Assembly (NCBI GenBank): GCA_000934665.2 | Contig: KZ539026.1 | Location: 1-36,056 of the forward strand | DNA: 36,056 nt | Direction: 5' to 3' | Source: Catajapyx aquilonaris | Taxonomy: Eukaryota | Shown here: positions 4,911 through 36,056 of the stretch, piece after piece | Layout: every line of letters starts with the position of its first letter | Numbering within the stretch: the stretch's first letter is position 1 | Notes under the pieces: model-generated | Told to the model about the DNA's origin: nothing | The model's database searches: none | What the model saw: the letters and a program-made list of their open reading frames with translations, nothing else | Made by a program: the position numbers and the translations under genes

Positions 4911-5200
4911 CACTTCCTTCAAGATGGCCGCGATTCAACACCCGGGGCCAATGACTAGAGGAGCTGGTTGCGTCCAATCTCCATCCGGGACTAGAGCGGG
5001 TTGAACGCGGCGGGGCTTACCCCATCACATCTTTGAAATGGAGCGGGGGTTGTTCACTTTTTGAGCGGGTTTGTGCAGAGAGCGGCCGGACGTGATCCTT
5101 CCCTGGCCAGCTCCTAGCTCGTACTGAGGGGGCTTGGGCGGACGGGGGGGGGGGTCGGGCCGGCGGGGGGGAGAGCCTGGGCTGGGGAGGAGGGTGGCCC
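4911..5200. promoter_or_regulatory. Promoter-like GC-rich element (ETS, YY1, 2x CCAAT, G-rich tract)
   Basis: CACTTCC 4911, CAAGATGGCCGC 4920-4931, CCAAT 4948 and 4974, multiple G-runs 5135-5197. Confidence 0.3.
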
Positions 5201-8200
5201 ATCAGTGCGCCGGCGAGCCGCAGCCCCTAAGCCTGCGCGACACTCGCTTTTGCACCCAATGCGCCCCGGCACCACACGGCCACCTTATTTCCAGAGCCAC
5301 GGCAACCTTGCTGGGGTTGAATGGACACGGGGCAGAGGGTATAGGGAGGGGGAGCAGGGGAAGGGGGGGGAAAAAAGAGTGTAGAGGCACGGCGGTATGT
5401 CGCCTATTGATTTACGTGTTACGACTTTCCGGGTATGGTGCATGCAGGGGATGCGGTGACGTGTGGCGGTTGCCAAGGCGGGGAGGTGAAAGCTCCTAGT
5501 GCATTAATATATGGCAGGGTAGGTGAAATAAATGGGGTGTGAATCAGATTCACAACGGTGTATATGCCATGTGTTTCATATCAGCACGTACAATATTGTC
5601 CACACATTCCGAAGAAGAAGAATGTCTATACATGCCGGTAAAGCAGAAAGTTTGTCGATATGTAAGTCACGGCTACCTAACCCACTACCAGACTACTAAG
5701 AGAGCTGAAATTAGGCACACCAATGTCTTACATCCTGCTGATCGCAGAAAAAGTCCGAAATCAGCACTTTTTTGAGTGTAAATACCAAAAATTTATGTTT
5801 TATGGAGGTTTTTGTGTGTTTCATCTGCAGCCTCAATCGAAGCACAGATGGCGCTCTTATTTGCGCGAGTTATTATTAAAGTCCGGTTTCAACATCCCTA
5901 GAAACATTTTCCGGCAACAAAAACAGATATCAGTCCATATTAATATTAGCTTAAATTATTTCAAATTACTGTAACTATACAAATCCATTGTCGACATCAA
6001 TAAAAATAACCGTTCAATCTTTCAGTTATGCAGCAGTTACATAATTACGAAACTGGATTTTAACTCGCATTTATGAATAAGCAACTTCTCATTAATTTTT
6101 AAAGGCTATTTTAAATGCATATTGGCCACTAAAGTCACCAATTTTCTTCCAGCCGTAAGGATTTTCCAGCCAATCGTGCAACGGGCCTATCCTCCAAAAA
6201 TAAAGCATGCCGGTCACGTTCGATTTTTTTCAGTCCGGTTCTGAACAAGTGTATCCCTGAACAGCCAAGATACAGAGAGCGGCCCCGTTGTCGCAACTCT
6301 TCAGCAAAAAGTATCTAACCCTCCCCCTCTGCCTCCAGGGGAGGGGAGCCAAAAAAAAAAAAAAAAATACGCAAGTATAACATAAAAAAACGGGAGAAGC
6401 GGCGCCTCCGTATCGATTGACTGTTGGCGAGGCTTCTTTTTCCACATTATTTTCCTCGTCACAACTGTCACGATATTGGAGAAACGACTTTTGGACGATG
6501 CAAATTGAATCTGGAATTTCTTTTTCATGCCGTGCAGCTGACTTGTATGGGCTTCTTTTATCCCTCGTAACGTTTTAGTCTGTATAGGCCTTCCCCCCTA
6601 TTCCAGATATGCTGGAAGCTGCCGCCTGCCAAGGGTTCAACTCGCAATTTGCTATTTTTTTCTTTCTTTCTTTATAGAGTCGATAGTATATAGCCACTTT
6701 CATATATCTAGTCACGCAAAGGCTTGTCAATCGGTGTCGAGGGAAATATTCCGGAGCACTACATTTGGAACAGGTAATTTACCTTTGCGCCGAAAGTGGA
6801 ACGATTTTCCTACCCCCTCCCTCGACCCCGCAGTTTGATTCATATCTACAACATAACCTACTCTTACTAGGCACAGTACCCGCCCCTGTGACTCCCAAAG
6901 TCCTCTCCTCTCTTTTTTTAATACACATACACGGCATAAAATTTCATTCGTCACGAAACCTCGCAGACATGTATCTACCTTTGGAATCGGGACCTGCGGT
7001 ATATTTTCGTACGCGTTTCATACCCATAAAATGCTTACAAACCGTAGTGACTGGCTTCACACCCTTTGCGATGGTGTTGCTTAACTACGGGGCTTATCTG
7101 ACTCATTTCCGTGACGTGACTTCTAGCGGAAAACAAGGATTCCGTGACCAAGGGTAGGCTTGTTATAGCCGTACTAAAACCTCCCAAATTGAACGGGTCA
7201 CGGCTGGAGAAATACGCCCGAGTGATATTATGTTTGCAAGGTACTAGCCGACAACAATCTGGGGGCGTAGCCTGTATAATATTAAATGAAAATTACATTG
7301 AAACTATTTAAAAAAATTAAATTAAATGTGGCTGTCAGCTCCATCCCCCGGTTGGGTTGGCCCCGGCGTTGCAGTACATTGGCCCCGGCATTGCCAATGC
7401 TGTGCCGCAATTCCAATATGTCTAACGATTCGGAGAGTTTGCCCGTGTTTACAAGCGCGTCAGTGCATCTCCGAGTGGTTTACTAACCGTCGGTTTCCCC
7501 AGTTGATTTTACAAGCGGACTCCATATTGAGCGGGGGGGTACAGCAGCTCATTTCCAGGCGACTGTACCCGGCTGATAATCGTCTAATGGTCGCCGTCGC
7601 TACACACCCTGCAGCCACTCGCTACATTAGTCCGGCTCATGTCGCATTACGAAACGTGTAGTTGAATTGCAGAGAGGTAATTAACCAATTAGCTGACCCG
7701 CATTAATTACTTCATGGATTACGGCCCTATTTATCACTCACGGTTAACCCCCCATTCTTCCCGGGGTAGAAAACCAAGACAAGCCCGGATCATTGCTCTT
7801 TCTTATTCGAGATTACAAATTGCCTAATGGGACGCGGAAAATGTCCGGATAAATCATGGACTAGCCCGGATGCATTTTGTACAGGGTGTTCCAAAAATAC
7901 TGGGGCCGGAAGCAATTTCCACCCATTTTCCCTGCACATTATCAAGGAAATGCCCCCCGTCCAGGGTCGGCACCGGTTTGCAAGCTGCCACTCTGAGCTA
8001 CAACAATGCACTTCAGGTTAGCTCTCCATATAAATGGTTTTGGAAGGAAAGGGGGAGCTAGGGGGCATTTGCAAGTCCCTCCATAATTTATAGCATTTTA
8101 CATGCAGCCCACTCCGGCTTTATTGTCTCGCCATCTTGCGACAACAGCCCGAGCCCCGCACTTGTATTTATACACCGGGCCTAGGAAACAAGGCCACATT

Positions 8201-13298: not shown

Positions 13299-15040
13299 GG
13301 ACCACATTGGGCGTCGAATAAATTCTGGCACACACTGTGAGAATCACTGCGGGCTTAGCCCCCTTTGGAAAGATATGATCCGGCCCTTTCAAAGCGGTGG
13401 CAGTATCTCCTTCGCCCTCTGCCCTGGCCCATTCCTCCTCGTGACATAATCGAGGCCTATTTCCACATCTATCTGATCAGAGGGGGGTATGGGGGTATAT
13501 AGGAAGAAAAAAACTCCCCCCGCGCACGCTCGATTAGGTAAACAAAATAGTAGCTGGCAAGAGCTCTCGGATGGAGATTGGGTTGGCGGGAGACCCTTCA
13601 GTGGGGGCTCTCCAACTGATTATGGAATGCCCCATCTCCGCTACAGGATCCCCGCCCTCCCAAAACCATAAAAAAAAAAAAAGAGTGAGGGCGCCACTTG
13701 AGGCAGAGGATTGTGGCATGATTTACTCACCGAGTGTTGTGGGACTGCCAATCGCATTCGGCTAAAAGCCCTCGTGGGTTTCCCTCACTAAGCCCGGATC
13801 AGGTCTCGAGACACGTGCCCTTCAAGGGTCTTCAAGAGCGCCCCCCCCCCCCCAATCCTCTCCCTAAATTAATGGCGGCTCCGATCTTATCTATAGGAGT
13901 GAGGTCATTTGCTTCACTCCTCATTCATTCTTAATGCCACAAAAAAACCGCACCCTAATACTAACACCAGTTCCATCACATCTCGGCTGGCAATCTCACT
14001 TTTGTGTGACCTACCTTCAACAAAAACCAATGTTCAGAACGGGGCGGGACCAGAGCCAATAACTAGATCTTTCCTCGTCACAAGTCAAACCTTGGTTAGA
14101 GAAGATCCGTTGGCTGGGCTCCCGAGATTTCTCCAATATTTGCATTGTCAATATCCTAGAAGGGTAGGGGGTAAAAGTACAGTTCTTGTCCCGCAGACGC
14201 TCGTGACAGTTTGATCAAAGGGGCCAGATATAAGCAACCGTGGCATGGGCTTGGGGCCCACCCAACCCGCAAGTTGAGTTACGCCCGGCTCGTTCTATTT
14301 GTTCTGTTGATTTTTAAAAGCGCCCAGAATAACATTGGAACGTCTGTTTTAAAAATACACAACCAGGTAGGTAGCCGGCTAATAATTTAAGCAGCTACCG
14401 GCTGAAAATCGGCGAGTAAAAAATGTGCAATTAAAAATTTTAAAGTATCGGCCGCAGTGCTGCCATCTACGCAAACTTCCCCCCAAAATGGCCGCCTATC
14501 CTTGGGGACCGTCGCAATTACCAGCTCTTATCTGGAATGACTGTCACGAACGTCTTTCAATTGCTTCCCTCCAGAACTAGTTTCTAGGGGCGATAAGCAG
14601 GGACCGCCATAAAAATCCGCTCTTTCTCCCTTTTTATGACTAAATGCGGTGAAGCTGTGTGCAGGCTCCGGAGAGCGATCGAGTGATAAAAGCTAGACAG
14701 GGCTTGATTAGTTAAGTCCCCCCCTGAAAAAAAAAAAAGTCGCGGACAAAAATTCCCCGGCGTACAATTCAAATCATTGGCCAATTCTTTTCGTCTAGCT
14801 CTTTTCCGCAAGCCTGGCGAGGGAACATTTATCTCCTTTAGTCGGGAACCCCCCCGCTTTTTGCAATCGGACCTGACGTGCGATTCATCCTCCTTCGTAG
14901 ACCATAAGTGATGGATGAAAAGCATGTTCAACAAACGAGAAAAACGATCCGGGAGACCCCCGAAGTGGGGGGAAGCTATGTCTCACTTAGACACCCTGGG
15001 AGGTTGCACCAAAAATATCAGGCAGTAAATATGTACTCAC

Positions 15041-15067
15041 CAAACTGGATATGTGAAAATGGCTTAC
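15041..15067 (-). other. Candidate recursive splice site (AG|GT ratchet point at 15068/15067) with a 27-nt in-frame RS-exon/microexon (VSHFHISSL)
   Basis: Minus strand: tactaaaattgaaccgttcttctttttctctccccctatag|GTAAGCCATTTTCACATATCCAGTTTG|gtgagtac. Branchpoint-like TACTAAA, ~20-nt pure pyrimidine tract, AG immediately followed by a GTAAG donor, and a second consensus donor 27 nt later. Same strand as the AUTS2-like exon. Confidence 0.6.
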
Positions 15068-15837
15068 CTATAGGGGGAGAGAAAAAGAAGAACGGTTCAA
15101 TTTTAGTAACCAGGCTGGGGTTTTGGGTTGTAATCCAACCAGTGGATTAACAGCGTGGGGTTTGATAGGACAGAAATTAGTGGGGGTAATAACAAGCTCG
15201 GAATTGTTGCATGCCACTAAAGAGCTGTTAATCCCTGGTCGCGATAATAGACGATTACCGGTTGGATCCCCGCCTCTCTCTCTCTTTTTTTTTAGCCCCC
15301 CCAGCGATTCACAGTGATGAAATAACAAGCAAAAGCTTATGAACACTGCAGTGATTTGAAAAAGCCCTAATTATTCATAACACGCTTATTTCGCACGCAA
15401 CATGTGGTAATCATTTGCCTCCCAAATTTAATCCGCCCCGACCCTCCACCCTCCAAAAAAAATATGAAAATGGCGATATTTTATCAAAACCGGCCGAATA
15501 ATAAATAATTTCGCCAGGCGCCAGTTTGCGCGCCGATTAACATCAACCGCCTAACAACCACCTCGCATGCTGCTTCCACGAAACACTTATCATGTAATCC
15601 GACCGCACTATATTTTGCACGCATGCGAAAATAGCAACCCTGATGAACTACACGCCCGTTTAGTCCGTATATCCAACGGGCACGATTTGTTGCCAGGCCG
15701 CGACATGACGGTAGGGATTTCCACCCTGTCCGGCTTCATACATCACCCATCAGGCACACCGCAACCCAGTAATGCCGCTGTTTTTCGCCCAACTCTGCCT
15801 GACTGCATGTGCAAACTGCATTATGTTCAACAACCAG

Positions 15838-16486: not shown

Positions 16487-18392
16487 CGCGTGACACACCC
16501 CACAAAAAATCGTATCTAGCACACTTTCTTTCTACGTCCTCTCTCCCTCTGGGTCGTAAAACCCGGCCTGGGCTGTTCATTACTGTCCTAAACACTTAGG
16601 CGCGACTCATCATGTTCATAAACACGTCATTTGCTGAACCCGAGGCAGGGCCGGGAGAGGCTCTTTTCGGCGCATAAATGGCCGCGAGGGCTCCGAGATG
16701 ACTCCGGTGTATAGGGTGAGTCATAATTCATCGTCGGGTAGTTGGCGGCTTTACGACACAGTCTTTTTTTTGTTGGGTCGGATCCACAGGGTGCGTGATT
16801 AGGAGTGCTCACAGGGTGTCACACACACTCGTCCAAATGGGATTGCCCGGCTGTAATTTACTGATGCCCACTCGGGCTCAATGTGATTCTCCACCTCTTC
16901 TGATCCCCCGCTTTAATCCCAGGGATCGTTAAAAGTCGGTCCGGGGACAGAAACGTGACACTGTCCCCGCCTCCCGTTCCTTTTAATTGATTTTTACAGG
17001 TGTTCCATTAGCATCAGGTGACAACAAAGATGGCGCTCCGGCCCGCTACAATTTCTATATTTTTAAAAAAAACTTTAGAATGTTTTTGGAGCCTCTAACC
17101 AGAGGGCCATAAATGAAGTTTGCGTTTGTCGTTCAATGGGATTTATTCCGAGAGGCACTGGGTTTGCATAAGTTATGGCGTTTACACATTGCGTTTGTCA
17201 GCTTTTTTGGGGGGGATCCCTCTCGCTATTTTTTAAAAGGGCCCGGGGATGCAAAAGCCTATTACCGGCCTCCAAAATTCGATTCGCGTGATCCCCGGAT
17301 GATTAACAAATGAACAAGATGAAATACATGACGCTATCTGCTGTCCTATGAGATTAGAGAGGCAGGGGATTGGTCCGTTGGGGTCGTGCTCTCATGGTCA
17401 TAATGACATAGGGGCTAATGTCATACCTGCAGTCCCCCCTTTACATCATCAGCGGCCGGCCGCCAAATTGCATTTTTCATCCGCGGGAAATTGCCTCCTC
17501 TCTGGTGCCCTCTTACATTTTTGAACAGCAGGACGCATCGCTGCTTGTTTATACGACAAACCGGGGGCGCGGATGGTGCACCAGGGACTGCGTCTATCTC
17601 ATTACAGGTCCGACTCTAAAAAAAGAGAGAGACCGGTTGGATTTGAATTTACAGCCCATTAATTGGATAACTGACCACATGCTCTATTTTTACGGTCCAC
17701 TTCAGGTGCAAATGGAAATTATTGCACTCTGATCTGCCTATGCAAATCAAATGCCTTGAACTCTACACTATACCCGGATTATTTTTTTCCCCCAGGTTCT
17801 CCCTTTTTCCGGGCATGACTTGGCATCACTGCTTTTCCATTACTCGGCGTCCTCGTTCCCTTGGCAAGCCTGGTTCTGGCTTGGTTGCCAGGAGGCGTCT
17901 TTATGTACCCTGTAAGTGGGATAATTTCCATGCCGTACCATCCGCCGGGGACCGTATCAGCCTGTTTATTGCCCTACTAAAGCGGTGAGTGGTCTTTCAA
18001 GGGGAAGTTATGTCCGTCCTTTTATTACGCTATACGGACCGTTTAGGCTATCCTCCGAGAAAGTTACTGTCTATTCTTTAACTTTTACGATATTACAAAC
18101 CCAACTAAATTTAGGCGAGCAGCCATCAAAGTTGGCTTGTAATTTGATGAGAAACCTTGAATCGGGGCGGTGTTTCCCCTTCTCAAGGCTTCCCCTTTTT
18201 ACTCCCCCTAGACCCAATATTTGGTCAACAAAAGCACCCCCCGGATATTAAACCGGAAAACGGGGCACGTATCACCAAACATTGTCACGGTCAATAACGC
18301 AGGGGTCAACGTGCATGTCGTCGGTAAGAGCACTTAAAAGGGGTCAGGAGTTTGACATGATGTAAAAATGTCATGTGCATAAAAATATGCAA

Positions 18393-18584
18393 GTGCATGA
18401 AATTATGCAGGTGAATAATTTCTGGTGCGTGAAATTATGCAGGTGAATAATTTCTGGTGCATGAAATTATGCAGGTGAATAATTTCTGGTGCATGAAATT
18501 ATGCAGGTGAATAATTTCTGGTGCATGAAATTATGCAGGTGAATAATTTCTGGTGCGTGAAATTATGCAGGTGAATAATTTCTG
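18393..18584 (+). repeat. Minisatellite, 6 x 32 bp GTGCATGAAATTATGCAGGTGAATAATTTCTG
   Basis: Six contiguous units; units 2 and 6 carry one A>G change. Each unit has an internal inverted repeat GAAATTAT/ATAATTTC. Degenerate subunits flank the array at 18375-18392 and 18585-18602. Confidence 0.97.
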
Positions 18585-21114
18585 GTGCCTAAAAATGTGC
18601 AGCTTTCGCTTTTCAACAGCCTTTTTGTCGACTTATGTTTAACGAATTCAGAGCAAGTTTTCGGTGGACACCCAGGGGTTCTTGGGTGATTCGAAGCTTT
18701 ACGCCCTCTCCACAAGAGTCCCCGGGTAGTTGCAATGGAACCCGCAGTTTGCGTGCCCGGAACCGGGCCAAGAAATCAGCCAGGGCAGGTCATCAATTCC
18801 CGGAATCGCGGATATCGGCCGAATCACCGCCGTAAAACGAAACGAGGATGGTTTTTGTCCTGGGGCTGCACGCAGTAAACACGATTACATCTCACAGCTA
18901 AAACACATGGCCCTCCCTAGATAAGGACTACACTTGAATCCCACCCAAAAAAAATCATTTATTAAATTAACATTAACATGCGTGATGAGGTGCGTCGGAT
19001 ATTAATTTCTGCCTTTTCATTATACCCGACACTTCCAGGCACGCATAAAGAAAACGCAATCTACTCCCCGTATCTTGGCACTCTCTTCATTATACGACGG
19101 CGAATAAATGCAATTTCATGGAAATAAAACATTCACGTCCTGCGCTGTGCGCCGGACTACTTTTACGAGTTCATTCCCAGATAATGAAACGGAAATTTCA
19201 TGTTGAATCTAAAAGCGTATACGAGCTGTTGACTTTTCATGCTCCATCTGCGCAACCTTTGGAAAAGCGTAAAAAAAAAGGAGTTCTAACTGCATGCGCG
19301 CACATGACTCAGAAAATTTCTAAAAACCCCGCCCGTAGAAAGGGGGGAAAAAAAAGTTCTTCACCACTCCCCATTCACATGCTAAAATCTTCCCAACCGC
19401 CACTTAACTTGTTTTATCTCTGGGAGCCAACCGCGTCGTAAAACAGATGAAGTGTTGTTAAGAATTATCTCCCCTCGACACCTTATCAAATAATACTGAG
19501 AGGGGGTGCACAAAACCGGAATCACCGTACTTAACCCCCATTCCCCCTCTCCCATCCTTGAACAGTCCCCACCNTTGGGGGGGGGGGGGGGGGGCATCGA
19601 ATGTATATGGCACTTTCTGCAAATAACAGGGTGCACTAATATGCCCATTAGCTATGCAATTGACTCCCGGACTATTCACTGAATACTGCATCGAGCTCCG
19701 TCTCTCCAATGTGATTCGAATGCCGAACAAGCGGCCTGTGGTATAATTGCGCGCCGAATGTCTTTTTATGCTGCATTACAAGGTTATTACCCAGCGGCAT
19801 AAAATACCTAAGAACCGGGGGGCTTATCCTTTGTGTAACTGCGGTTTACGGGCGCGGGTAAACTTATGCCAACAATAAAACCCCCCCTCCCGGCTTGGGA
19901 TTTATATTTACTGGAATCGTAAAGCAAAGGCCTGGGCTGCTGCAATGTGAGAACATAGTTCACAGTTTCATTCCCTCATGGCTCTTGCATGACGGCTGCA
20001 GCAATGGTACGGTACATTAAGGGGGGGTACCTCGAAACACACACACAAAAAACACGGTCATTACATTTTTACAATATTTAGTGTCCTTTCAGAGCGTATA
20101 AAAGAATGCAAACGAGGTATGCCCGGGCTGGTAAAATAATGAATGCACTGTAAAATAATTATTTGCAAAGACTGAACACGGTGGGCTGGATGCGTATGGA
20201 ATTTCAAAGCAAGCGTGCCTACCAGAATGCCAAAAGATATATGCAAAATGTTCGTTTTATGAAAATGCGAGGGGCTATGGTCGGGAGGACTGTCACGTAC
20301 ACATGAATACACAGAGGATACCCCTGAATATTCAGAGCACATGTTTGGCCACTATGTCTTATCAGTGTAGGTGCGCAATGCACAGAGGAATTTGTTGGGG
20401 GTGTCCCAAATAAAATTTTCCCGATTCTCAAAATTCGCTCACTAATTACTATTATCCGGGTATAGGATTTATTCAAACTTACTCCTTACTTTGATATACT
20501 GGTCATAACGGCTAGTAAACCACTTCTGCAATAGACACACAAAAAACAGATGAGAGGGCCTATCATCGCCGGCAGCTTCTGGCAACCCCCATTCGGAAAC
20601 ATTGGACAGCTGTCTCCTCCAATTCCCTTTCCTCTGGCATTGAGCAGATGGATGCACCCCCTCAACCCCTCCCATTTCTCTCCCAGGCCTGTGCGACCTG
20701 ACTCGCAATCAACGGTTGCTAGCGCGACCCCCATCGATAGACTCCACAAAGCCGGTCACCCGCTAGTGAATATTCCGCTAGGGTGCCAGCCCCCCCAGTC
20801 CAAATGGTCGCTTGAATAACTTTGGGCCTCCGTTTTTTTTCAGAGGGACAGCACACAAAAAAAGTGTAGTCTTGGCCCTCCTTGAGCATTCCTCTCATGG
20901 GCTAGCTTCCGGTGGCGCCTCTTGTTGGCTTTGGCCGGCGCCGTCCTTTTTGGCCAGGCAGGCCACGTCCTCCTCGGAAAATACAATCGCGCGGGGCAAA
21001 ACGCATTAGGAGAGCAGCCGCCGCGGACGGCATCTTAACCACCGGGTACACTCGTGGACAAAATCAGGCGGTTTTGCAATTGACTGAGAGATTTAGAGTG
21101 AATTACGTGGACCC

Positions 21115-21184: not shown

Positions 21185-23763
21185 GAGAGAGTGTCAAGCA
21201 AGTAGTTCATTGGTTTGTCCAGGAAATTTGTACTGTCTCTGATTATGTCGTAGGAATACGTCAGATGCCCAAAAACACCTGCTTGCATGCTACACTCACT
21301 GTCAGTCATACAACTTGTATGTAAATCAATGGCCAATTAGCCAAATATTGCAGAAAGACTGGGTTTTTCAGAAAAGTAATAAGAAGTTCTGAATAAAGAT
21401 GAGGGTTTTAATCACCAAGAAACAGGCAGCAGAGAATCAACAGCATGCAGCGGCAAGGAAGTAACATTGCCTGCTGTGACTGCATGAGACTAAAACCATG
21501 ACTTATGCATGACAAAGCCCACATGGCTTTGTGTAGCATTAAATATATTCAGTGACCCAAGTGCTCTCCTCTGATATCATGACATGTCTGGCATTTATTG
21601 GACAGAGATATTTGTCTATACCTCTGACGTTGTAATTTTCATGCCAGCGTATACCTTGTCCTTTTCTTCAGGGTTGCTTGCAGCAGTACCTTGAGTGACC
21701 AGACGGGCAGACTCTATTACACGATGTCTATAATATAAGATACTCGTTTCGTGGATACAGTTTTCCCCAGAAATCATAAAATCGCAAATATGGGCGCGGT
21801 AAGAGCGTCGTCTATGTACTGAAAAATAACACGATGGAAAAGCTGGATATGTGAAAAGATTTTGCAATTAGAGAAACATTAATTTATGCCGTTTCGAGAA
21901 TTTCCGGTGCGGAACTGTAGGTACACCATTGTGCAAAATATGTTTACCAAACTCAGGCCTCACACAGGTATAGGTCCCCCAAACTAATTCAGTCTGTTAA
22001 AAAATTCTGAAAAGGCACTTTGAGCACTTTTATGTTGAGCACATTATTGGTTAATAATTCATATGTGGCGGCAGCGGCGGAAAAGCCCAGGATCCGTAAC
22101 GATATTTGGAGCTATACGTCTGAGCAGCAATTGAGTTATGTTATTCTGCTCCTGTTTTGTTGCTTATTATGCTCCGGCATGGTTTACCCCAGGGCGGACC
22201 AAGTTAAATCTATTTGCACAGCGTCAATTAAATTATAACTTGGAACACCCTGCCCCCCAACAACACTGTACGGCCACGAGTCTAGGACGTGTGCGAAAAA
22301 AAATAATCTATCAGGCCAGATCTTTTCGCATTACCGGTCTCAATTAGAATTACCCCCGTGGCATTCCAGACGCAAGCACAGCATTCCTGCCGCTATACCG
22401 GAATTTGAAACACGTCTCGCGTCTACGGTATGCGCCACGCCCTGAAGTCTACAACACGCACCATGGCCAGGTACAACCTCCTGGTAGCAGTATTTTTAAA
22501 AAATCCAACTATATTTGCCTATAGGGTCCTACATATAGGACACTTGTACTGTTTCCAATTCATTTGCTCGTTTAAAAATATGTTCATATTTTAATTTAAA
22601 AATATATATATATTCAAACACATCTGTGGTTTAATGGCACGTGTCGCCGCCTCTCGGGCCACTTCAACAACCAGCGGCGAATATCAGCATCCTTCTGATC
22701 TTGTGGTGTTTCCCATGAGGAAGAGGGAGTCATGAAAGCTTGCGGGAGCACAGGGTTGTAAAAGGAGGTGTAGTGAGAAGCCTGGTTGCTCCGGCGCCTC
22801 CGCCAAATTACCTCCAGACTGCGCTTCTGCCATTCGGCCCCGCATCATTTCGTGTAAAAGAGCTCTCGGGGACACTGAAAATGTCCGGTGCAGTCCCACG
22901 AACCGCCCCGGAAAAAAGAAAAAAAGCAGAGAAGAAAAGACCTGCAAACACTGCTCGGGCTCTAAATGGCCCGCCGACTATGTCAACCTGCATCCCTGCT
23001 GAGAATTCTGCCGAAAACTAACGCAGTGACCGCATTTTGAACGCATCGCAAGTGAGAGAGTTGCAGCGCCTGGAGCAAATCTGAGAGGGTTATAAGTTAT
23101 GCGATATCCCTAGAGGAAAATGCTGCTCATTTCTGCAGCGGAGAAAGCGTCACCGCATTGGGGGGATATATAAAGGAGGAAGCTTCCCCCTGTTCAAGAC
23201 GCAAAAGTCTTTCTCCGGAGGGGCCCTCCTATCTAAACCTATAAAGCATCTTTAATGGCAACAAGGGGGGTAGTAGGTTATAGTGTGTGCAGCACATAGA
23301 AACCCCCTTCTATGGCACCCCCGCAGCCCTTCCCAAGATGAAGAGGGCTTCCTTCTTCTCTTCCTCCCATTGATATCGACTCCCCCCTTACCTTCCACAA
23401 ATTGAATTCCAACACACTCCTTCCCTCCTCGCTCGCCTTATTAGCACTTTATCACCCTAATATCATCGAACGACGGCGAACGGAGGGGAAATGGGGACCC
23501 GGGCCCGCCAAAATGAAGTTGCGATGAAAAATCTCGTTATTTTAACTCGCTTGAAAGAGGCCCCGGTAATGGCATTAGCTTCAATCGGCACGGCAGAGGA
23601 GGTGGAGGAGGAGGGACCCAATCGGCCCTCCAGCTACGTCGACTCTTGCCAATTCCCATGTTGGCAACACTGATGCAAGCGCACATAACATCGGACTTAT
23701 CTGTGTTCAGAAAGTAGGTCCTGTAAACATTGAATATTCCAAATGCATAAAAATATTTACCAG

Positions 23764-23931
23764 GTGCTTCAGTATACTCACTAGGTGCTTCAGTATACTC
23801 ACTAGGTGCATCAGTATACTCACTAGGTGCATCAGTATACTCACTAGGTGCATCAGTATACTCACTAGGTGCATCAGTATACTCACTAGGTGCATCAGTA
23901 TACTCACTAGGTGCATCAGTATACTCACTAG
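23764..23931 (+). repeat. Minisatellite, 8 x 21 bp GTGC(A/T)TCAGTATACTCACTAG
   Basis: Eight contiguous units (first two GTGCTT, last six GTGCAT) with internal palindrome AGTATACT. It produces the spurious MHLVSIL-repeat ORF. Confidence 0.97.
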
Positions 23932-25829
23932 GTGCATAAAATGAGACAGGTATATACAGCTGATGAAATGCGATAAAATTATTTATTGATGAATAATTAG
24001 TCTGAATTTTTACGCGCGTTGAATTTTGAGTGTTGTCTTAGGCTAGTGAATAATAAAAAAGGCAAGTTTGGATGTCGGGGTGGTTTGCAACGATCGGCGT
24101 TAACCTTTCTATTTTGTAGCCAGCATTGGCTAATAAAATCACATATATTCGGAGCAAATGGGCGGATTTGATGGGCGCATAAACGCCATTAGCAGGGCCC
24201 TTTTAATGCCGGGTGATGGTAACAGAATGAAGAGCAAGACCGCTGATTGGATAAACGAGCGGATCGAGTGTGCAACAAAGGTTCACGCATTACTTAATCC
24301 TCCATCGGGATGAAACTTTTTTGGGGGAGAGAGGGAGGGCATACCACCACTCCCTTTCGCTTTTATGATCCTCTTAGGATGGATTCGCCCTTTCCTCCCA
24401 ATTTCCAAGCCAAATATGGGGAGGAACATCCGCACGGCGAGCCAATATCGAGGATGACAAGTGGAAATATCGGAAATCGAAGAACCAAAAGGGTAAAGTG
24501 TAGGCTTCCCTAGGCCCCGACCTCTCTGATTTTCTCAAATTCCCTCCAGCGGATCTGAGCCATATGACTTGCATGCTCAAGTTGTGAAGGACTGCTGCTT
24601 TGGAGTACTCAATATGGCGGCGAAGCCCCACCACCCACCACCAGCAGCTCCTCTGCCGGATTTCCGCCGCGTTTTCTCATTTTCAGACGCTCCAGCTAAG
24701 CACCTCAAGTGCAAAGCGTGTCGGTCGCAAATCCAATCTTGGGCTGGCATCGCGACTTGGCCCGCAGGCATACATCACGCAGCCGACAAGGAATAAGCTA
24801 CAGTGCTCTTCCAATTACAATAATTGCATTTACGCCACGTTAAAAGCTCTCATCGTTGCGAAATGAGCTTACCCCAGCTATTTCATTCACGTTACGACGG
24901 GGCCCCTATACTTATGGCTTTAGGTGTGAATATTATATCAGAAACCCTAATCCATAGCCCCCGGGGCCGCACTTCAGCATCATCTCTGTAGTCATCGGGG
25001 CCAAAAAGTAGACGAAAATCACTTTTTCCCCTGCAAAGTTACTGACTCTAACTATAAGCCTCTTCAATATAGTCGAGAGACCCGGAATAACCAAATGCAG
25101 CGGTTATTAACCGGGCCTACATAATACAGTATAAGCCGCCATTACTGTAGATGAGCTTTGTCGTGTCCTGATAAATTGTTACTGTCTGTGGCTATAATGT
25201 ATGTGCAGGGATGTACTCAACAAAAGTTGCATGAAATTTGAAGGCGCTTTAGACACCGAAGCCCCTCAGGAATTTTTTTCCAGCACCGAATGGCCTTTGA
25301 TTCCCCATGTTCGCATGTCTATTCAGCTTTGATTTCCCTTTCTCGTCTTCCCATAAAAAAGACGCTACAATAACATCCAAAATGGAAAAAAAAGGAGCCC
25401 ACTTGAGCGAAACTTTTTTTCCTTCTTCTTTCCACCCCCCAGTATGATAGACGGATATAAAAACATCCCTTCCGTTCCATTTCACCTCCCGGGGATATAA
25501 TGTTGCGAAGAATTTTTACGGTCCCAGACAACGTTGCAACGAATATACCCCCTTGTTATTCCCTCTAATGCCAACATCTATTTCTTTCTCATGTCGCGGG
25601 GGCATTCCCAATGGTCAATCGAGCGCGGCCCCTCTGCAGCTTCTAAAAGGTTGGAGGCCCACATTTAATTCCCATGCCCACTGCACAAAAGAACAGCCAT
25701 TCTGCGCCACTCCAAATTTACTGCCGTCCGGGAGAAGAACAAGAAGAACTGCTGTTATCTGGCGGAAGTCTGTATACTGTAGCCGCCTGCGGTCACTTTT
25801 TATTGGGGACGCGGATCTGGTTGTAACCA

Positions 25830-26651: not shown

Positions 26652-26701
26652 GCCGCCATCTTGCTGTTATTACGTCAAAAGCGGCCATATTGCTGACGTC
26701 A
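26652..26701 (-). promoter_or_regulatory. Paired YY1/Pho + CRE module (possible internal promoter)
   Basis: GCCGCCATCTTG 26652, TTACGTCA 26670, GCGGCCATATTG 26681, TGACGTCA 26694. Confidence 0.4.
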
Positions 26702-26703
26702 TC

Positions 26704-26873
26704 NNNNNNNNNNNNNNNNNNNNNNNNNNNNNNNNNNNNNNNNNNNNNNNNNNNNNNNNNNNNNNNNNNNNNNNNNNNNNNNNNNNNNNNNNNNNNNNNN
26801 NNNNNNNNNNNNNNNNNNNNNNNNNNNNNNNNNNNNNNNNNNNNNNNNNNNNNNNNNNNNNNNNNNNNNNNNN
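26704..26873. other. Assembly gap (170 N) followed by a 20-nt G homopolymer
   Basis: N run 26704-26873; G run 26874-26893. Confidence 0.99.
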
Positions 26874-29104: not shown

Positions 29105-29131
29105 CTTATCGTCTTCACTCTCACTATCACA
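29105..29131 (-). CDS. AUTS2: 27-nt phase-0 internal coding microexon (CDSESEDDK) of a probable AUTS2/FBRSL1/tay-family gene
   Basis: Minus strand reads taatgatttttttttccctgtctttacag|TGT GAT AGT GAG AGT GAA GAC GAT AAG|gtaagg: long polypyrimidine tract, CAG acceptor, AAG|GTAAG donor, length divisible by 3. The peptide resembles, from memory, human AUTS2 ...[25 protein letters not shown] and FBRSL1 ...[22 protein letters not shown], where this motif is a tiny exon between very long introns. The exon call is stronger than the gene name. Confidence 0.72.
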
Positions 29132-34521: not shown

Positions 34522-34650
34522 ACAAATTGTACAAATTGCAGAATATTAAATTTGACAAATTGTACAAATTGCAGAATATTAAATTTGACATTGTACAAAT
34601 TGCTGAAAATTAAATTTGACAAATTGCAGATTAAATTTGACAAACTGTAA
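34522..34650 (+). repeat. AT-rich minisatellite, ~33-bp unit ACAAATTGTACAAATTGCAGAATATTAAATTTG (2 perfect + ~2 decayed copies)
   Basis: Identical units at 34522-34554 and 34555-34587, with shortened copies at 34588-34618 and 34619-34639. Confidence 0.9.
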
Positions 34651-36056
34651 AAAATTATTTTACAAACTTTATTAAATGAAAACATGCAAAAAAAATCTTG
34701 AGCATGAGCTTCTGAAGACGTTTACGCCCAAATGTGCTGCCCATATTTTCCACGCAAATCTCATTACCCAAATGAGACTTGCTAAAAAAAAAAAAAAAAA
34801 AAAAAGGCGACATGGCCTCACGAAATACGACTTCCTCCTTTTTTTCCAGAATTTACGCCGTCTCACTTCCCCTATCCTTTTGTGCACATTTCCATCCATT
34901 TTGTAGATAACCAGCATGCTTACACACCGGTTTGGATAACGTTGATCCTGTTTCGGGATACTTTGTTGCACCAACTGAATGGGTATAGTACAGTATAGAA
35001 AAGACCTACAAAAAAAATGGGTGGGGCAAGGTGGCGGAAAATTACTGGGGTCCCCCATACTTCAAAGGAACAAACTTGTTTACTTTACCACGATCAATCT
35101 GCTCCCCAGGAGCAAAACCCGCGATTTTGCTACAGGCCTTGTATAACCTTTTCCTTTGAAAACCGTCGGTTGGAAAAGAGGAACTTTTTGAGGGCGGGTT
35201 CCGCCTCTCCATTTCTCATTTGAGCTTGCCACTAATGATTTTACACCGCCCAATTACAGCCACATGCCAGGCCTTTTTACCTTTCCACCAAAAAAAAGTT
35301 TCAGTGCTTCAGGCAGGTAATGCTGTGTAATAATAACGGAACACTAAATCAAATACTTTTAACTCTACAATTTTATACAGTTCCCCGCTAATTCCATTTG
35401 GGATATACCTTGTCCACTCCTTTTGTCCCGGATAAGACCATTACACAGCCGCGCGTTATTAGATCACGTTAATTATAAGCGTCTCAACGATTGCATGATC
35501 AACCAGTTAGCCGGCTGATAATTGTAACCGTATTAGGCGATTAATGATCGGGTGGGAGGGCTTAGAGAGCCCCCCCGGATTAAAACAGGGAGCTACACAC
35601 GCGTGATTATGGCAGCCACTAGCTTGTAACACAATAGTTCAATCAAGTAACATGATTTGGGGCGTCAATTTGGATGTGCATGCTCCGGTCATCTGATATT
35701 GGATAAAAAAAATTGTATGTTGGCATACAAGCTAATCAGCAACTGTTTCCAAAACTTGACAGAGTCAATATGGCCGCTTGTTATTTTTGCGCTCCGGAAG
35801 TTGCTGCTTATTTATGTAATGCACCGGAAGCTGTTTCCTAAACTGTATAAATATTCGGGAAAAGAAGTTCCACTGTCTGCCCAATTATGCAGCCATTTTC
35901 CAGCCAAAATCTGCGGACAGGTCAAGGTCTGACCATTTCCCCTCAGAATAATAATGCCACTCCGACCCCGCCCGCAAATGATGTTAACCATTTTTGTGCC
36001 CTGCCAGATAAGCCTTGGGGGCCATAAAATACTCTTTGAGAAGAAAACTTTCTTCT

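Follow-up and report, generated by a model that had tools for sequence, protein, structure and literature searches.

Recursive splicing was discovered at Ubx, where the choice between the regenerated donor and each microexon's own donor decides the fate of two microexons of 51 nucleotides (nt), m1 and m2, which are accordingly removed or kept (Joseph et al. 2021, PMC8605326). According to the same source, flies possess >500 intronic ratchet points with short cryptic recursive splice exons (RS-exons) of ~50 nt, which are generally out of frame and internally poorly conserved, and the AG/GT motif (the slash marking the splice junction) is ultraconserved. Here we describe a candidate ratchet point on the minus strand of a 36,056-nt stretch of DNA from Catajapyx aquilonaris (contig KZ539026.1, positions 1 to 36,056), hereafter referred to as the window. 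The candidate, a splice acceptor fused to a donor at position 15067 and followed by a second donor, had been singled out in an earlier note on this DNA, which assigned it to a long intron of an AUTS2-like gene.

Expressed RS-exons number <50 in flies, with those of msi, sm, heph, mub, and ps showing variable inclusion, and the donors of ratchet points tend to be stronger than those of RS-exons (PMC8605326). A second donor is found <100 nt downstream at most fly sites (Blazquez et al. 2018, PMC6224609). The mean recursive segment measures 9.1 kb, and conservation of the sites is double that of control AGGT motifs (Pai et al. 2018, PMC6110457). Thousands of putative RS-exons are reported for mammals (PMC8605326; PMC6224609). 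Hundreds of annotated RS-exons are held in the mRNA by the exon junction complex, and the share of annotated RS-exons is high in deuterostomes from sea urchin to human (PMC6224609).

The strand on which such motifs occur has also been compared across animals. Shepard et al. (2009, PMC2773006) counted ratchet-point motifs per 100 kb of long intron and on the complementary strand. Table 2 of that study gives 2.196 versus 0.101 for fly (ratio 21.7), 1.029 versus 0 for mosquito, 0.807 versus 0.101 for beetle (ratio 8.0), 0.540 versus 0.066 for sea urchin (ratio 8.2), and 0.484 versus 0.122 for bee (ratio 4.0). For eight vertebrates, the intron-to-complement ratios reported there range from 0.9 to 1.5.

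Anatomy and rarity of the candidate ratchet point

The earlier note had described, between positions 15030 and 15110 of the minus strand, a branchpoint-like motif, a pure pyrimidine tract of ~20 nt, an acceptor fused to a consensus donor, and a second donor exactly 27 nt later. Direct reading of the letters recovered every one of these elements (Table 1). The tract is pure as described and slightly longer than described, and the donor G of TTG/GTGAGTA stands at 15040, exactly 27 nt past the AG/GT junction. The presumed branch A is at 15103, 35 nt ahead of the final intron base at 15068, and an A and a T stand between the pyrimidine run and the acceptor AG. Joined to an upstream exon ending in AAG, the fused donor would read AAG/GTAAGC and would reach 11.01 bits in this regenerated context. 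Position 15067 thus combines the features by which ratchet points are recognised at the sequence level: a fused acceptor and donor, a donor downstream, and a regenerated donor that is the stronger of the two.

Table 1. Features of the candidate ratchet point, its predicted upstream exon, and copies of the RS-exon core in the window
Feature	Position	Strand	Basis or remarks
Predicted upstream exon, 27 nt, CDSESEDDK in frame 0	29105..29131	-	Splice-site scores
Branchpoint-like TACTAAA	15102..15108	-	Read directly; 4/5 CTRAY positions match; branch role predicted
Pyrimidine tract, 21 nt, T/C only	15072..15092	-	Letters counted
ATAG, acceptor AG = 15069-15068	15068..15071	-	Read directly
GTAAGC, donor fused to acceptor (candidate ratchet-point donor)	15062..15067	-	9.34 bits in genomic context
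Candidate RS-exon, 27 nt	15041..15067	-	Frame 0 VSHFHISSL; frame 2 open; frame 1 stop
21-nt core of candidate RS-exon	15044..15064	-	Recurs elsewhere in the window
GTGAGT, candidate RS-exon donor, context TTG/GTGAGTA	15035..15040	-	8.66 bits, rank 27/3668
Inverted look-alike unit	6655..6712	+	Pyrimidine run, ATAG, spacer, core; without fused donor
Third, partial core copy	21840..21857	-	17/18 identical, including an exact 15-mer; without pyrimidine tract and AG/GT

We scored all GT and AG dinucleotides on both strands of the window with a generic metazoan splice-site matrix. The acceptor at 15067 reached 15.96 bits, which placed it fourth among 3845 AG sites, and the fused donor ranked 11th among 3668 GT sites. 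The combined AG/GT score was 25.3 bits, compared to 16.1 bits for the runner-up among 208 junctions. When the score was normalized as a ratchet-point score, 15067 (0.872) was the sole junction at or above 0.8 among the 207 scored on both strands, and no other ratchet-like junction among them exceeded 0.702. The statement of the earlier note that the window holds a single junction of this kind is borne out by these figures.

The rarity of the motif was estimated in two ways. In 60 third-order Markov simulations of the window, the best junction scored 23.0 bits, short of the 25.3 bits observed. The expected number of sites as good as 15067 was 0.0065 per window (both strands), a figure obtained by multiplying the empirical frequency of the upstream part (122 of 72,076 positions) by that of the downstream part (0.019) over 208 junctions. 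The chance that another donor scoring 8.66 bits or more would occur within 10–120 nt was ~0.04. Within the window, the 15067 motif is far from chance.

Exon-like pairs were defined as an acceptor of at least 7 bits and a donor of at least 6 bits with an open frame between them, no more than 400 nt in length. The two top minus-strand pairs were 29131-29105 (26.2 bits) and 15067-15041 (24.6 bits), so that the candidate site shares its strand with the best minus-strand exon-like unit, the predicted upstream exon. This unit reads cag/TGTGAT...GATAAG/gtaagg, with tttttttttccctgtctttacag as its upstream flank and gtaagg as its downstream flank; its donor ranked first of 3668 and its acceptor eighth of 3845. 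The spacing from 29104 to 15068 is 14,037 nt, in agreement with the ~14 kb on the same strand given in the earlier note. A first segment of 14.0 kb would be of the same order as the 9.1-kb mean of fly segments (PMC6110457). Among the 15 minus-strand exon-like pairs, there was no convincing candidate for the next exon downstream.

Base composition provided a second indication of strand. Of 18 two-kb bins, 16 had more G than C on the minus strand, and 16 had more T than A. Transcription-coupled asymmetry leaves an excess of G over C and of T over A on the sense strand. Since the skew has this direction in most bins, the minus strand is probably the sense strand, and the whole window may lie inside one minus-strand transcription unit.

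The reading frame and the identity of the gene are less informative. The earlier note had emphasised that the 27 nt are in phase 0 and free of stops. This requires that the upstream exon encode CDSESEDDK; the upstream unit is open in a second frame too, and there the junction to 15067 creates an immediate stop. A random unit of 27-nt size would be in frame and stop-free with a probability of (1/3) x (61/64)^9 = 0.22. Because of this chance level, and because the property depends on one reading of the upstream exon, the frame argument is weak and carries little weight as evidence. The AUTS2-like label is likewise putative. It was taken from nine acidic and serine residues, of the kind that abounds in the small N-terminal exons of vertebrate AUTS2.

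Recurrence of the candidate RS-exon core

Part of the candidate RS-exon occurs more than once in the window. The 21-nt core, AGCCAYTTTCAYATATCYAGT, is found again in the inverted look-alike unit on the plus strand, which consists of a 19-nt pyrimidine run (6655-6673), ATAG (6674-6677), a 14-nt spacer, and the core (6692-6712). The core copy at 6692-6712 is identical to that at 15064-15044 in 18 of 21 positions, and all three differences are transitions. The spacer between ATAG and core differs in length, measuring 14 nt at the 6692 copy versus 3 nt at 15067. The acceptor of this unit, at 6678, reached 17.5 bits, second among the 3845 AG sites. It opens an exon-like pair, 6678-6773, on the plus strand, probably the antisense strand, and the translation of this pair contains the peptide SHFHISS found in VSHFHISSL; the peptide is common to both pairs because the 21-nt core is present in both.

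These recurrences exceed what would be expected by chance. With one mismatch allowed, a 14-nt core was present in three copies in the window versus 0.04 expected, and the 21-mer core in two copies versus 0.00 expected. As a control, 400 random 27-mers were drawn from the window outside the tandem arrays and the run of N. An exact 15-mer was found elsewhere for four of them and a 21-mer with at most three mismatches for five, with three satisfying both conditions. The alignment score of the whole unit between the 15067 and 6692 loci was reached by four of 300 dinucleotide shuffles. A longer homology between the two loci was considered and rejected, as only the ~50-nt unit aligns: the scores of the flanks were reached by shuffles in 300 of 300 cases upstream of the pyrimidine tract and in 281 of 300 cases downstream of the core. 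Within the window, the core unit gave no sign of a repeat family, of a target duplication, or of homology over a greater length. A scan of metagenome contigs with the 21-nt core returned two loci that shared nothing beyond the 21-mer, and these were taken as chance matches.

On the opposite strand, both the 15067 and the 6692 copies read core, then TATA, then a purine-rich run. This layout recalls the 3' end of a retroposon followed by its tail, which we offer as an idea and not as a result. Antisense retroposon tails are a known source of splice acceptors, as in Alu exonization in primates. The resemblance to that process lies in an antisense purine- or A-rich tail that would serve as pyrimidine tract and AG, and in the presence of units in both orientations. 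Unlike Alu-type exonization, the present case shows no repeat family, target-site duplication, or longer homology, and consists of two to three short copies in 36 kb.

Alternative readings of the 15067 site

We tentatively prefer to read 15067 as a genuine intronic ratchet point of the ordinary kind, with a mostly zero-length outcome, although our confidence in this reading remains a little short of even. During transcription of the predicted long minus-strand intron, exon definition would pick out the short unit 15067-15041 by its strong acceptor and the GTGAGT donor 27 nt downstream. The acceptor at 15067 would then be spliced to the predicted exon ending at 29105, which would remove the first segment of 14,037 nt and regenerate the donor AAG/GTAAGC at the 29105/15067 junction. 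The regenerated donor would drive the next step, and the 27 nt would leave with the remaining intron (zero-length recursive splicing). Occasionally, the second donor would be used, and a 27-nt insert would be left in the mRNA.

With 11.0 bits, the regenerated donor outscores the RS-exon donor (8.7 bits), and the zero-length outcome is therefore predicted to prevail. The earlier note had envisaged donor choice as a toggle between skipping and insertion; the donor strengths predict mainly zero-length removal and not a balanced toggle. Ubx-m1 and msi are reported as exceptions to the rule that the stronger donor prevails (PMC8605326). The strand ratios in the cited table of Shepard et al. (PMC2773006) suggest that a strong sense-strand motif in a long invertebrate intron is more likely to be selected than accidental.

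Comparison with described sites shows where the candidate conforms and where it departs. As at Drosophila intronic ratchet points, a pyrimidine tract and AG/GTAAG are juxtaposed, a second donor lies <100 nt downstream, the ratchet-point donor is stronger than the RS-exon donor, and the site is located many kb inside a long intron, here a predicted one. Drosophila ratchet points are ultraconserved and come with saw-tooth RNA profiles and junction reads, whereas 15067 is known from sequence alone. The cryptic RS-exons of Drosophila are ~50 nt long and generally out of frame, whereas the 15067 unit is 27 nt long and open in the assumed frame. The candidate also resembles expressed RS-exons, such as Ubx m1/m2, those of msi, sm, heph, mub, and ps, and those of deuterostomes: the donor at the exon start would be regenerated after ligation, the choice between own and regenerated donor would lead to inclusion or skipping, and the length preserves the frame. 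Those exons have been seen in mRNA and several have been proven by mutagenesis; by contrast, inclusion of the 27 nt is hypothetical and the coding frame is assumed.

Several points weigh against a functional ratchet point. The recurrence of the core suggests that the acceptor half at 15067 may derive from a dispersed repeat; if it does, the true chance rate would be above the computed estimates. Part of the unit recurs in the window, whereas fly sites are unique. Extrapolation of the chance expectation (0.0065 x 0.5 for strand x 0.04 per 36 kb) gives ~4 such sites per Gb genome-wide, and the 15067 motif had been chosen by eye from many windows. The splice-site matrix was written from general knowledge and was not trained on the source organism. 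With this matrix, the plus-strand pair 6678-6773 scored 26.3 bits, on a par with the predicted real exon. Finally, the surrounding gene, with its upstream exon and intron, is likewise a prediction made from splice-site scores.

The same observations bear on the possibility that 15067 is an unused pseudo-site, which we consider rather doubtful yet serious. A pyrimidine stretch followed by AG, possibly an A/G-rich tail read antisense together with the 3' end of a short dispersed repeat, would have acquired donor-like hexamers by accident, and the splicing machinery would ignore the result or use it as noise. This would agree with the occurrence of the core three times in the window and in both orientations, a pattern matched by just three of 400 control 27-mers, and with the shared arrangement of core, TATA, and purine-rich run on the opposite strand of the 15067 and 6692 copies. 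Two of the four top acceptors in the window belong to the core unit, and the 26.3-bit pair on the probable antisense strand shows that high scores arise here without evident function. A length of 27 nt is short for exon definition, and splicing-regulator motifs are not enriched within 300 nt of the site, where one GCATG (at 15214) and nothing else notable was found. On the other hand, the similarity between copies is limited to ~21 nt plus low-complexity sequence, with unrelated flanks. Screens of the window found no transposon protein, tRNA-like head, or Rfam family, and a repeat family is therefore hypothetical. A fused consensus donor with a second donor is improbable for any given copy, as GT plus an RAGY-like continuation after a given AG has a probability of ~1/16 x 0.019. 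The excess of sense-strand motifs in the invertebrates tabulated in PMC2773006 also argues that most such motifs are selected.

An ordinary cassette microexon of 27 nt, whether constitutive or alternative, with an incidental donor-like start and any skipping being conventional, is an improbable reading of the unit. Both of its splice sites are strong (16.0 and 8.7 bits), its length is a multiple of three, frame 0 is open, and the neighbouring predicted exon is likewise 27 nt long. Annotated exons with a donor-like start are described as common in deuterostomes and usually retained in the mRNA (PMC6224609). Against this, VSHFHISSL is unlike the acidic, serine-rich neighbouring exon, and an in-frame, stop-free unit is no rare event at the chance level given above. 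The core also turns up in non-coding surroundings, one of them on the other strand, which would be unexpected for a conserved coding microexon, and the regenerated donor is stronger than the exon's own donor.

A further reading is a regulated switch: both outcomes would be frequent, and the insert of nine residues would be functional in an AUTS2/tay-like protein. Such a switch would have an anatomy identical to that of the ratchet point we prefer and a precedent in the RS-exons of Ubx-m1 and msi, included despite a stronger ratchet-point donor (PMC8605326). It is very unlikely given that the reading frame is assumed, the gene identity comes from nine residues, the donor strengths favour skipping, and a conserved coding role is at odds with the recurrence of the core.

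Window context and implications

The surroundings of the site offer few landmarks. Long coding sequence is absent from the window, and no Pfam family was detected among 38 scanned open reading frames (ORFs) of at least 100 amino acids, picked from 175 after setting aside those containing runs of X, those made of tandem repeats, and some that overlap. The window contained no Rfam matches and no tRNA or tmRNA genes. It includes 173 N, as a run at ~26700-26870 flanked by a run of G and as isolated N, which indicates a draft assembly. The observed-to-expected CpG ratio of the whole window was 0.85. Such a value differs from that of bulk vertebrate DNA and would suit an invertebrate genome with weak or no methylation.

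Some local features deviate from the rest of the window. GC skew on the plus strand is negative in nearly all 1-kb bins and clearly reversed in just one, at positions 5001-6000 (+0.150); the ORFs of this bin are G-rich and encode proline/glycine-rich sequences, and the bin could represent a simple repeat or a boundary. Two tandem arrays are present. The first, at 23723-23958, has a period of 21 nt and about eight or more copies, and both of its strands carry long ORFs that encode repeated heptapeptides. The second, at 18361-18648, has a period of 32 nt and ~7 copies, each with a plus-strand CAG/GTGAAT donor-like site; these sites account for donor ranks 19–24. Beyond the tandem arrays, a self-comparison of the whole window (E ≤ 1e-3) gave one further repeat, an imperfect direct repeat of ~45 nt at 34524-34653 with 84% identity.

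Taken as a recursive splice site, the element described in the earlier note shows all the anatomical parts of a ratchet point and its short RS-exon, and its strand matches both the exon candidate and the compositional skew. A balanced toggle is disfavoured by the donor strengths, and the novelty does not stand. A frame-preserving RS-microexon switch was already the founding case of the field, Ubx m1/m2, and other expressed RS-exons are known, so the mechanism proposed here is the classical one and its conceptual novelty fails (PMC8605326). Neither AUTS2 nor tay came up as a recursively spliced gene in a literature search that included catalogue supplements, which may be incomplete or may use other gene identifiers, and a search for AUTS2 together with microexons, at the level of the listings, turned up no report of AUTS2 microexons.

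Position 15067 is a good ratchet-point candidate. If used, it would be one more ratchet point of a well-described mechanism, in an organism where, as far as our literature search extended, recursive splicing has so far only been predicted from motif enrichment (PMC2773006). The aspect that would add something new is the possible repeat origin of a ratchet point. Such an origin, if true, would matter more, as the origin of ratchet points is little documented and fly sites are old and ultraconserved. The most far-reaching version, a recursive splice site in an invertebrate, maybe outside the insects, with an acceptor half born from the antisense tail of a short dispersed repeat and an in-frame 27-nt RS-exon that is alternatively kept in the mRNA of an AUTS2-like neurodevelopmental gene, is highly improbable as a whole. 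If true, a repeat-born and alternatively kept RS-exon would document recursive splicing beyond flies and vertebrates and would provide an example of how a ratchet point originates.

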